Position numbers and translations under genes: made by a program. A stretch of 64,000 bases of DNA from the NCBI GenBank assembly GCA_034664845.1, contig JAXDGW010000027.1, positions 1,687 to 65,686 on the forward strand, in the 5' to 3' direction. Within the stretch, counting starts at the first letter, position 1. Every line of letters begins with the position of its first letter. Below the pieces are notes generated by a model. That model made no database searches. It worked only from the letters and a program-made list of their open reading frames with translations, and was not told the DNA's origin. Below, in pieces: positions 36,211 through 41,853 of the stretch. This stretch comes from Thermoanaerobaculia bacterium. GTDB lineage: Bacteria; Acidobacteriota; Thermoanaerobaculia; Gp7-AA8.

Positions 36211-39200
36211 ATGCACGGCAACGCACGTCATCAACAACGAGGGTTCACGCTCGCCGAGATCCTCCTCACCACAGCGATTTTCGCCATCATCATGATTGCG
36301 GCTCTTGCGGTCTATGACAGGAGCAACCGCGTTTTCAAGAGCGGAGTGGAGTCGGCGGATATGCAGCAGAGCACCCGCATCGGCTTCGACAAGCTCGTGG
36401 CTGACCTGCGCATGGCCGGCTTCGACTACAACCGCGGCGGCGATCCAACCGGAGCCGGACAGTTCCCGCAGCCCGACGAGCAAATTGAATATGCCGGAAG
36501 AACCGCGGTCGTGATCCGGGGGAACTTCAACTACAACACCGCCTCCAGTACTGGAAATGGCCTGGAGCCGTCCTACACTCCCACGGATACGGCTGGCTCC
36601 CAGATCTTTCCTTTCGTGACGACGAGCAACGACGAAATCGTCGCCTATGTCCTCCGTTCCGCCGACAGTAGCAAGAACACCGGCTCCATCTCGTTCTATC
36701 TCGATTCCAGCAAGCCCAGAACAGCGTATCCGGGCGGCTCCGCGGAGTCGCTGATCACGATCAGCAGCTCGCTCTGTTCGGCCTGCGGAATCGACACGAC
36801 GAATGCGAATCCGCCGTACACCCTTTATCGGCAGACTCTCTCCGACATTCTCAGCAGACAACCCGGCACCCCGGTTTCTGAAAACATCCGCAGCCTGAAC
36901 TTTTTCTACTACACCGACGCCAAGGGCTCCACCGTACTCAAGAACAACGATGGTCCGCCCGCCACGGATATCGCCAATACTCGCGATGCCGATGGCTCAA
37001 CAACTACAACCGCGGCGGCCACGTTCGTCAACGAGGATGCCACGACTACCACGCTCTACACCGGCGCGATCGGCGGTGCCGGCCAATATGACCCTAATCA
37101 TCCCGGCACGGCAGCCAACTTCGCCGACCGGCAGTCCCGAGCGACGATCCAGTCCGTTCGCGTGACCCTGCTTGGGATGAACGCCAATCCTGAGCCGAAC
37201 TACACGCAGAAGACCGAGACCATCGCAAGCATCAAGAATTACCGGCAATATCTCCTCTCGGCGCTGGTCGTTCCAAGAAATCTTGGCCTTACAGGGTTTC
37301 CGGAGCCGAGCAACTCCACACCGGCCCCTCCCACCATCAAAGGGGTCTGCGTGGCTGCCTGTGCCGCGCCTGTAATCTGCTGGATACCTCCTACAGGCGG
37401 CGGACCCGTCCAGCAGTACCGGATCGAATGGGATACCAATGCGAGCGGAGCCTTTGCGAGCTCTCTTACGATTGCCGACCCGACTGCGACGACGGCGATC
37501 ATTCCCGACAACGGAACGATTAATCCGTCCCTGACCTGGTATTACCACATCATCGCGCAGAACGACAACGGATCGAGCGGGCCAAGCCAATCGATCTCGA
37601 TTCAGCCTAAGAATTCCACGAAGCCGATGCCGCCCACTTCGATCGTCGCGGCCAGTACAACGAACTACGCAGTGACCCTCGGATGGAACTCGCCGAGCAC
37701 GAACGATCCCTCGCAGGCAACCTCGACCTGTTCGGGCACCGGTTGTAGCGCTGATGCGTCGACGATTCCTTCGCAGGAGTCGATCCATTACCGTATTTAC
37801 CGGGGCCTTACGGCGAATTTCGATCCGGGAACGGCGGGCCAGAGTGTCACCATTCTTACGACCGGCGGCGCCAGCCAGCCGGTGGTGCCTTCCCCCGGCT
37901 CCTCGGTCAGATGGAATGACTCCCCCACAACGTCCGCATTCCCTCCCGGCACGTGCGTTCAGTACTACTACAGGATGCAGGATGCCGACCGTTGCGTGCT
38001 CAGCGACACCTACAACACCGGCACGCTCAACGACTCACTCAGCACCATGTCGCCGCCAGTCGGCACGAACGCAGTGGCTGGCACGGCTGCCGATCTCTCG
38101 ACCGCATTGGCCGCCGCTCCGCTCAGCCTGAAAGTAACCACCGCGACCTCCGCCTGTCCTGCCGCCAGCTCCACGAATTGCAGGGTTGATCTCACATGGG
38201 CGAAGGTCTCGGCGGACAACGCAGGTAACGCGATCGGCGTCGATCGATACCGTGTCACCCGTTATCGCAAGAAACAGACGGACACTTCGTTCGTGCTCGA
38301 TACAACCTTCAATCTGACCGGCTATCAGGACGTCAGCGGCTTTTCCCAGAACAGCGCGGGAATCATCGGAATGAGCGACACCAGCGGCGTCGCAGTTGAT
38401 CTCGCCGACGGCAAACCCTGGTACTACGAATACACCGTCGCAGCTAAAGACTGCCGGTTGGGTCTTGTTTCCACTCCCGTCGATTTCCCCACTCCGTGCG
38501 CCGTCAACCCAATCATTGTGGAGTCGGGAGCGTCTAACGCATCCGATACAGCCGATACCCCGCCAACTGCCTGGATCATGAATGCGGGAGACAGCATCGC
38601 CGTAACCCCGCCCGTCGGTCTGACCATCACCTCGGTGACCTTCGAATTGACCACCTATCCGGGCGGTGTTGCCGTCGGCACTCCTATCGTCGATACAACC
38701 TCGCCATTCGTATACACCTGGGCAGACCGAACCGATGCTCAGATCTACAACGTCAAGATCACCGTAGTGACCAGCACTGGCTGCACCGAGATCCATACGA
38801 AATACGTAAAAGATCAGGCGGCGGCAGCGTGCGCCTTTACCAATCAGGCGCTCGTGGCGTTCTCTTCCGCAACGGCAGGCTCGACTACCACATTGAGCGA
38901 GACCTACACGCTGACGAACTCCGGCAGTGATCCGCTGATCGTTGCTTCCCAGCCGATCAAGGTCACCTGGGCCTTCCCGGCCGGCGACACCAACCATACG
39001 GATCTGACCCTTACCGCCATCGCCTATACGACGACCACCGACAACTTCACCGGAGTCGGCCCGGGCGCCGTTACCCGCCCGATCCCGGCGAGCATTGCGA
39101 ATATCCCTGCCGGCGGTACCCTCACCATCACAATCCGGTGGGAGTACAAGAAGACAGATGATCCTCCTGCTTTGAGTGGACAACCGCTGTCCAAAGTCTG

Positions 39201-41853: not shown

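Follow-up and report, generated by a model that had tools for sequence, protein, structure and literature searches.

How does a diderm bacterium equip the tip of a type IV pilus if its minor-pilin operon encodes no PilY1? Diderm type IV pilus biology centres on PilY1/PilC as tip adhesin, plug, and mechanosensor, and in model systems pilY1 follows pilX in one operon. The question is raised by a stretch of 64,000 nucleotides from a Thermoanaerobaculia bacterium (Acidobacteriota; contig JAXDGW010000027.1, positions 1,687 to 65,686), hereafter called the window, whose own numbering is used throughout. A cassette of four minor-pilin genes within it contains two giant open reading frames (ORFs), i.e., ORF1 of 1028 amino acids (aa; 36211-39297, + strand) and ORF2 of 848 aa (39307-41853, + strand). 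An initial annotation had described them as two giant minor pilins and had proposed that the function of the tip adhesin may be built into them. Here we describe both as genuine, conserved genes in the J and K positions of an H-I-J-K set and argue that they probably form part of a tip complex that works without PilY1.

Both giant open reading frames are genuine and conserved

The cassette lies on the + strand of a Thermoanaerobaculia metagenome-assembled genome (MAG) and encodes, in this order, GspH/FimU-like (H), PilV/GspI-like (I), PilW/GspJ-like (J), and PilX/GspK-like (K) subunits, with ORF1 in third and ORF2 in fourth place. Its genes are separated by 16, 14, and 9 nt, have AGGAG-like (Shine-Dalgarno-like) sites 5' of them, and adjoin a prepilin peptidase gene and a pilC-pilB-pilMNOPQ set.

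ORFs of this size might be artefacts that arose by chimeric assembly, by frameshifts that fused several genes, or as shadow ORFs of GC-rich DNA, and the initial annotation had itself allowed for fusions caused by assembly errors. The GC-rich DNA of this locus does yield long spurious ORFs, e.g., one of 697 aa on the minus strand (38035-40128) antisense to the J/K junction, whose GC peak at codon position 1 marks it as a shadow of the genes on the + strand. For ORF1 and ORF2, however, GC content at third codon positions (0.71-0.73) fits the + frames, and comparison with four orthologues revealed numerous codons with synonymous changes only and substitutions biased to codon position 3 (in one example, 462 at third, 192 at first, and 143 at second positions). 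Confidence of the structural models described below is high over the whole length of both proteins, with Cys pairs invariant throughout.

Protein searches retrieved 407 relatives of ORF1 and 816 of ORF2, the nearer of which are full-length and of similar size (ca. 1020-1100 aa and ca. 850-900 aa, respectively) at 45-93% identity; ORF2 is 100% identical to a protein (P0121) of a Thermoanaerobaculia MAG. In species-representative genomes we found 70 related loci, all from Thermoanaerobaculia/Acidobacteriota MAGs that stem from many projects and assemblers, with two chromosome-level records among them. About 60 of these loci have sufficient flanking sequence for comparison and keep the order of peptidase, kinase, H, I, J (970-1470 aa), and K (720-1000 aa; lengths measured stop-to-stop), usually followed by pilC-pilB-M-N-O-P-Q and pilins. 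Since full-length homologues, including single-contig chromosomes of Thermoanaerobaculia such as OY970284.1 and OY970380.1, keep the J-K pair, ORF1 and ORF2 are not fusions. With full-length orthologues in the same gene order in more than 60 independent assemblies, the chance that we are dealing with artefacts is negligible, and we consider the two giant minor pilins to be real genes, as first annotated. In two loci (L044 and L049), two giant J-K cassettes lie side by side, which recalls the multiple sets of minor pilins and PilY1 in Myxococcus.

ORF1 joins a pilin module to a predicted string of beta-sandwich domains

ORF1 starts with a class III signal, MHGNARHQQRG/FTLAEIL (...QQRG/FTLAEILLTTAIFAIIMIAALAV; the slash marks the predicted cleavage site), with G-1, F+1, and E+5. 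It matches N_methyl (PF07963, E=2.9e-6) as well as TIGR02532, and G11, T13, and E16, i.e., E+5, are invariant in 64 ORF1 homologues. The pilin module (residues 1-358; 36211-37284, + strand) comprises an 11-aa leader ending at G/FTLAE, an alpha1 helix (residues 14-67), and a beta-rich head in the AlphaFold2 (AF2) model, and these ca. 355 aa are the best-conserved part of the protein. Assignment to a named family is less clear-cut: ORF1 has no PilW or T2SSJ match in Pfam, scores 14.6 bits against the gspJ model TIGR01711 (cutoff 64.85), and as a family aligns with Escherichia coli GspJ over the N-terminal 39 columns only (hhalign, 93% probability). PilW (PF16074) was weakly detected in 5 of 28 ORF1 relatives (best E=0.0016), so that the label "PilW-like" draws only on gene position and on weak family-level matches. 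The Verru_Chthon pseudopilin cassette (TIGR02596, TIGR02598-02600) was tried as another affiliation and rejected, with scores below the curated cutoffs for H (30 vs. 70 bits), I (23.7 vs. 51.4), and ORF1 (17.2 vs. 256.5).

Beyond the pilin module, the AF2 model, which was built on a 64-sequence alignment, predicts a linker (residues 359-366, with low pLDDT at 361-366) followed by five beta-sandwich domains. Three of these (D1-D3; residues 367-466, 470-612, and 620-762; 37309-38496, + strand) resemble fibronectin type III (FN3) domains both by sequence (fn3, E=5.7e-5 on the segment) and in Foldseek searches. D4 (765-872) and D5 (875-1000), together with a C-terminal tail bracketed by C1012 and C1027, make up the remainder (38503-39297, + strand), with AF2 strands predicted at a pLDDT (predicted local distance difference test, a measure of local confidence) of ca. 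80-90. The family profile of ORF1 matches titin FN3 at E=1.1e-12 (positions 349-479), an fn3 domain is found in 25 of 28 relatives, and Foldseek against the PDB returned strings of FN3/Ig domains such as those of gp130, titin, LAR, contactins, and fibronectin (E=1e-15 to 1e-9). FN3 strings are stalks as often as they are binders. The overall pLDDT of 85.6 combined with a predicted TM-score (pTM) of 0.45 fits "beads on a string" since the low pTM goes with a high pLDDT. By this model, ORF1 belongs to the appended type of modular pilins, its pilin module being connected through a flexible linker to five beta-sandwich domains that resemble FN3/Ig folds.

The extension has 14 invariant Cys positions, consistent with what the sequence of an oxidised, exported protein would look like. 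In a group of relatives at middle distance, identity is 62% in the pilin module, drops to 35% in D5 as the most divergent domain, and is again 62% in the last 28 residues, where C1012, N1023, P1024, and C1027 are invariant. In relatives of 1270-1390 aa, the D4-like unit is present in additional copies, and the pilin head contains an insertion.

ORF2 appears to be a K-type pilin interrupted by a large inserted body

The initial annotation had ascribed canonical prepilin N-termini to both proteins, which holds for ORF1 but needs qualification for ORF2. The N-terminus of the latter (...NDRG/SALLVSLMVIVGLSLLGLGF; ...NDRG/SALLVSLMVIVGLSLLGLGFVAI) has G-1 and lacks Glu+5, with Val21 at this position, and G16, S17, A18, and L19 are invariant in the family. 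The PilX_N domain (PF14341) that had been assigned to ORF2 scores below threshold (15.9 bits vs. a cutoff of 25.5, E=0.013) but is supported at family level, where 21 of 34 members carry it (best E=6.6e-7). ORF2 has no T2SSK match and zero NCBIfam matches, and hhalign of its family with E. coli GspK yields a probability of 2.9% with only the N-terminal helix aligned; the N-terminal motifs of the two proteins read DRGSALLVSLM and QRGVALLIVLM, respectively. In H-I-J-K tip complexes, Glu5 is found in the H, I, and J subunits but not in K, the subunit that caps the filament (PMC9934059). The missing Glu5 of ORF2 is therefore expected rather than disqualifying because its absence is the rule for the K/GspK class (PMC9934059). 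In both giant proteins, a short basic leader up to Gly-1 precedes a hydrophobic alpha1N segment of ca. 20 residues. Positions and signals agree in that ORF1 is third in the set with E+5 as expected of J, and ORF2 is last without Glu5 as expected of K.

The AF2 model of ORF2 (pLDDT 87.4, pTM 0.81) is a single compact body. In its N-terminal part (residues 1-258; 39307-40080, + strand), a 16-aa leader with RG/SALLV and the alpha1 helix (18-72) are followed by a beta head that resembles those of pilins and whose strands extend up to residues 237-249. About 570 mostly beta-structured residues follow before a final strand at 836-846 (PRVIVYNVQTD). By this prediction, ORF2 is an insertion-type pilin with its head interrupted by the inserted body (residues 259-830; 40081-41796, + strand). 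The extensions of both proteins are thus shorter than the 700-900 residues of the initial annotation, measuring ca. 670 aa at the C-terminus of ORF1 and ca. 570 aa as an insertion in ORF2. Their enrichment in Thr and Ser is moderate (23% Ser plus Thr in the ORF1 extension and 18% in ORF2 vs. a background of 13%), and they are folded beta domains rather than low-complexity tails. Of the Ig, Fn3, or lectin folds that had been envisaged for them, FN3/Ig folds are predicted in ORF1 but no lectin, and the body of ORF2 has no significant match in the PDB.

This compact body has no significant relative of solved structure. The three best Foldseek matches of ORF2 in the PDB are ComZ chains of Thermus thermophilus (best 6qvi), which are non-significant (E=0.018-0.09, probability at most 0.14), and profile searches of PDB sequences with the ORF2 family returned nothing at E<=10. 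A HMMER search with residues 415-848 against 1.84 billion representative proteins found 183 clusters at E<=1e-3, and the body extends to the very C-terminus of every full-length match (600-900 aa); in the scans made, the ORF2 family is confined to Thermoanaerobaculia.

Three elements of this region stand out. The first part of the body includes a variable module of GGxGY repeats (residues 306-414; 40222-40548, + strand) that is ca. 70% gapped in distant family members and has local matches in BFVD to tail-fibre and structural proteins of phages, cyanophages among them (ca. 80 columns, 35-44% identity, root-mean-square deviation 1.7-3 Å). Its absence from shorter K relatives suggests from sequence comparison that it may be a mobile surface-display module. 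Further down lies an EF-hand-like loop, DLNGNGKFD (D648-D656; 41248-41274, + strand), of the form Dx[DN]x[DN]GxxD, which is conserved in 167 non-redundant relatives and coincides with a weak FG-GAP_3 match. The calcium site of PilY1 proteins, which is functionally important there, has the consensus Dx[DN]xDGxxD (PMC8833165); the loop of ORF2 fits it except for N at position 5, where 24 of the 167 relatives have D. The extreme C-terminus (residues 831-848, ...MPRVIVYNVQTDEQQQ; 41797-41853, + strand) includes the final AF2 strand and is a candidate donor beta-strand in cis. P834, V836, and D844 are invariant, and conservation of the last 18 residues equals that of alpha1.

PilY1 was not detected in the window or near related cassettes

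The claim that the operon contains no PilY1 gene stands. PF05567, the PilY1 family, was detected neither in ORF1, ORF2, or 62 of their relatives nor among the Pfam-scanned ORFs of the window (most of the large ones), and no PilY1 structure is among the Foldseek PDB matches of ORF1 and ORF2. Another 25 unassigned ORFs of 780 aa or longer, located up to ca. 10 kb from the 70 related loci, yielded no PilY1 among the 25 families listed, with 23 further single-member families outside this listing. No PilY1 gene adjoins the cassette in over 60 related loci. In these, the slot after K is taken by a GGDEF regulator, a protein of ca. 1050 aa with a spermidine-synthase domain, or a pair of PilT-like ATPases. 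A hidden PilY1 after K in distant loci was considered and rejected, as the large minus-strand genes there encode Spermine_synth-domain proteins.

The cassette is embedded in a complete set of neighbouring pilus genes

On its 5' side, the cassette is preceded by the gene for a PilD/GspO-like prepilin peptidase (32368-33168, + strand; A24_N_bact E=2.6e-37, Peptidase_A24 E=6.4e-15), which keeps its position in related loci, and directly by that of a sensor histidine kinase (32973-34859, + strand) with a HisKA/HATPase-type C-terminus in the translation. The real start of the latter is probably 3' of 32973, and its orthologues have PAS, HisKA, and HATPase_c domains and lie upstream of H in most related loci. 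This placement is similar to that in Pseudomonas, where fimS-algR sit upstream of fimU-pilVWXY1E. For the kinase, a cognate regulator that binds DNA was not identified.

The H subunit (34972-35580, + strand; 191-202 aa) matches GspH (PF12019, E=9.1e-12), and its translation, with a likely ATG start at 35005, shows the signal RRLEAG/YSLTELL with G-1 and E+5. The I subunit (35597-36196, + strand; 199 aa) matches N_methyl (E=1.6e-7) and, below cutoff, gspI and PilV; its signal, RERNG/YSLIEVL, shares the pattern G/YSL(T/I)E with H.

Between the cassette and pilC lies an antisense gene for a response-regulator diguanylate cyclase (41926-43035, - strand; GGDEF E=1.1e-32, Response_reg E=7.4e-20), and the same slot holds such a gene in several related loci. 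The slot is variable, with the Spermine_synth-domain protein on the minus strand in distant relatives and the pair of PilT-like ATPases in L016 and L018. The pilus machine genes follow on the + strand from 43230 to 51438, with strong matches to T2SSF (E=6e-52), T2SSE (E=2.5e-130), and Secretin (E=6.8e-43) and weak ones to PilN and T2SSM_b. This machine operon comprises pilC (43230-44435), a pilB-type ATPase gene (44445-46067), pilM-like (46036-46959), pilN (46956-47531), pilO (47528-48124, the weak T2SSM_b match), pilP-like (48121-48810), and the gene for a secretin of 806 aa (49018-51438), in an order that is kept in related loci. Unusually for PilP, the pilP-like gene product combines a poly-proline run with a calcium-binding repeat of thrombospondin type 3 (E=4.1e-6). 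The secretin is long, its secretin domain being followed by a Pro-rich linker and, at the C-terminus (residues 697-795), by a domain that weakly matches cohesin (E=9e-4). Control by cyclic di-GMP was considered and is not claimed, given that the ATPase has an MshEN match but the cyclic di-GMP motif RLGxxL...G was not seen by eye at its N-terminus. Two Cys-free GspG-like pilins (51438-51926 and 52002-52541, + strand) with signals G/FSVAE and G/FTLIE are the likely filament subunits; N_methyl was matched at E=1.1e-9 and T2SSG weakly for the second, which has a long N-terminal extension before its likely true start.

A scan of 34700-43400 for promoters and terminators returned nothing informative. 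Upstream of the pilus locus, the window encodes an exported-looking subtilase of 1079 aa (25327-28569, - strand; Peptidase_S8 E=3.9e-25) and an exported-looking FG-GAP-repeat protein (21928-22911, - strand), neither with an evident link to pili. A literature search on Thermoanaerobaculia pili turned up nothing relevant.

A proposed PilY1-less tip complex with giant J and K subunits

We favour, as the reading with a reasonable balance of probability on its side, that ORF1 and ORF2 are the J and K subunits of the H-I-J-K initiation complex of a type IVa-pilus-like machine, forming a tip or priming complex without PilY1 in which J and K take over capping and adhesion. For recognition by the I-J dimer and for licensing of filament assembly, K-family pilins require a last beta-strand, which is supplied in trans by PilY1, PilC, or MshQ and in cis in GspK, CpaL, ComZ, and the K subunit of the Vibrio cholerae competence pilus (PMC13533445). 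In systems without tip adhesins, K often has a large insertion between its sheet and the donor strand (PMC13533445). ORF2 fits the cis-strand class of K pilins because of its position, the lack of Glu5, the location of its insert, the conserved terminal strand, and the absence of PilY1.

In this proposal, the subunits would be cleaved by the prepilin peptidase, and K without Glu5 would cap the filament. The extreme C-terminal strand of K would complete its own pilin sheet in cis, by analogy with GspK, ComZ, and CpaL, and the completed sheet would license docking of I-J and priming of the filament. The H-I-J-K complex would then exit through the secretin to the pilus tip, where the K body with its EF-hand-like calcium loop may serve, possibly in a calcium-dependent manner, as a plug or cap, a task that falls to PilY1 in other systems. 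The beta-sandwich string of J could reach ca. 20 nm if extended (our estimate from typical FN3 dimensions), and its fast-evolving distal domain may bind a surface or polymer. In both proteins, parts involved in assembly are kept while D5 of ORF1 and the module at 306-414 of ORF2 vary, and the adhesin role of J and K is inferred from this conservation gradient and from architecture. A replacement of the PilY1 "plug" has also been proposed for the PilX solenoids of cyanobacteria (bioRxiv 10.64898/2026.02.12.705559, a 2026 preprint).

Several points weigh against this model. Neither ORF1 nor ORF2 yielded a lectin, von Willebrand factor A (vWA), or other domain for ligand binding, the insert of ORF2 lacks annotated relatives, and the FN3 strings may be spacers. 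The K insert shows no recognisable solenoid of the ComZ type (Foldseek E=0.018, probability 0.14). The cis strand is not secured by covariation, as the mutual-information pairs 833-254, 837-250, and 839-248 fall on one antiparallel register (z ca. 3) but the register-wide scan is non-significant. The GspG-like filament subunits lack Cys, and the GspH, T2SSM_b, and T2SSG matches have the flavour of a type II secretion system (T2SS), which could point to a non-extending pseudopilus. With 64 kb of the genome at hand, pilY1 could lie elsewhere. Moreover, bulky superfolder green fluorescent protein fused to the C-terminus of Myxococcus xanthus PilW3 jams the machine (PMC7541494), and the 670-aa extension of J needs explaining because this fusion blocks function (PMC7541494). 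A slender, flexible FN3 string could plausibly explain how J passes through the secretin. The suggestion that the tip adhesin is built into the pilins is hence upheld in that J and K are core subunits with large folded domains and PilY1 is absent nearby, but not in the sense that a ligand-binding domain could be pointed to.

A bolder version, which we regard as doubtful, is that the job of PilY1 has been split between the two giant core pilins. The K insert would be an unseen fold replacing both the propeller and the calcium switch, the disulfide-bracketed tail of the J stalk would dock onto K, and a closed tip of ca. 200 kDa (estimated from 1876 residues) would pass the secretin, which would amount to a third way of building a tip.

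The T2SS flavour of some components raises the alternative that the whole machine is T2SS-like, with H-I-J-K as the tip of a pseudopilus that stays short and periplasmic and whose giant J and K domains would contact secreted substrates or the secretin instead of external surfaces. Besides the Pfam match of H to GspH and that of the PilO-position protein to T2SSM_b, this would accommodate the Cys-free GspG-like major subunits with their IPxDP...W motif and the resemblance of the K N-terminal motif to that of E. coli GspK. Yet the genes follow the PilM-N-O-P-Q order, no GspC, GspL, or GspN family member is among the Pfam-scanned machine ORFs, and PilT-like retraction ATPases adjoin the operon in three relatives (L007, L016, and L018). 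A flexible J stalk of ca. 670 aa with fast-evolving distal domains would also make little sense in the periplasm, and we judge this alternative unlikely. Even less probable, in our view, is a competence pilus with K as a ComZ-like DNA receptor at the tip whose body binds DNA rather than surfaces. ComZ chains are indeed the three best PDB fold matches of K, ComZ has the topology predicted for K, with a large insert separating the penultimate from the last strand of its GspK-like domain (PMC6561018), and PilY1-less competence pili employ enlarged K subunits (PMC13533445). However, these matches are non-significant, the predicted secondary structure of the K body is not that of a regular solenoid, no com genes are among the ORFs scanned, and the FN3 stalk of J would be left unexplained.

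A more conventional arrangement would have a PilY1 encoded elsewhere cap the pilus, leaving the extra domains of J and K as accessory spacers, exopolysaccharide binders, or regulators. The limited extent of the window speaks for this possibility, as does the precedent of Myxococcus with several sets of minor pilins and PilY1 (PMC7541494), alongside the two J-K cassettes in L044 and L049. It is hard to reconcile, though, with the model operons in which pilY1 follows pilX, given that none was seen in the window or listed near the 70 loci, and K has its terminal strand at its own C-terminus, the very feature that makes a PilY1 strand in trans unnecessary (PMC13533445). We therefore give it little credence as well.

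Relation to known pilus tips

The closest parallel to a PilY1-less tip with giant J and K subunits is the class of ComZ and enlarged PilK/PilX pilins (CpaL/TadG, the V. cholerae competence pilus, and cyanobacterial PilX), with which ORF2 shares a K subunit without Glu5, a GspK-like head, and a large insert before the final strand, in an operon without PilY1 and with a proposed location at the tip or as its cap (PMC6561018, PMC13533445, bioRxiv 10.64898/2026.02.12.705559). In ComZ, this insert is a triangular beta-solenoid, whereas the ca. 570-aa insert of ORF2 is not recognisably one and has the GGxGY module and the EF-hand-like loop. The extra domain of GspK is an alpha-domain that interrupts the sheet midway (PMC13533445).

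ORF1, in turn, is reminiscent of the modular pilins PilB (vWA) and PilC (lectin) in the PilABC tip of Streptococcus sanguinis, which likewise consist of a pilin module, a short linker, and folded modules and occur as two together without PilY1 (PMC9934059). An InterPro survey of modular pilins found FN3 (IPR003961) among the 15 commonest extra modules (PMC8179133). Unlike in S. sanguinis, the host is here a diderm with a secretin, and it is the core J subunit within a complete H-I-J-K set that is modular. ORF1 also differs from known modular pilins in its five beta-sandwich domains, none of known adhesive specificity, and in size, with relatives of up to ca. 1390-1470 aa that go beyond the extreme of 860 aa cited previously (PMC8179133).

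With PilY1/PilC of type IVa pili, the proposed tip shares its role as a large cap and adhesin that primes assembly and, in the Dx[DN]x[DN]GxxD loop, a resemblance to the PilY1 calcium site (PMC8833165). PilY1 itself is a non-pilin with a PF05567 (IPR008707) beta-propeller that provides its strand in trans, whereas we propose a cis strand from the K pilin. The GspH-I-J-K set of T2SSs has the same gene order and the same distribution of E5 (in H, I, and J but not in K), alongside the GspH match and the alignment of J with E. coli GspJ at the N-terminal helix. Beyond the N-terminus, however, there is no similarity, and E. coli GspJ (195 aa) and GspK (327 aa) are far smaller than ORF1 and ORF2.

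Implications

It has already been published that minor pilins, when enlarged or modular, can carry tip functions in systems lacking PilY1, and the present locus adds no new principle to this. What is specific to the present case is that both J and K are giant, that the pair is kept across a class of uncultured Acidobacteriota, and that J reaches 1000-1470 aa. The same applies to the K body, which is rare, lineage-restricted, and without a detectable solved relative and has a calcium loop of the PilY1 type, making it a protein of interest for studies of fold and ligand. The locus extends the ideas of modular pilins and of cis-strand PilK beyond monoderms, Thermus, Caulobacter, and cyanobacteria, and it provides a natural test case for the load that J can take with it when passing a secretin. 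For the Thermoanaerobaculia, our results suggest that an abundant class of uncultured soil and sediment Acidobacteriota appears to do without pilY1 beside its minor-pilin cassette and has enlarged J and K instead.

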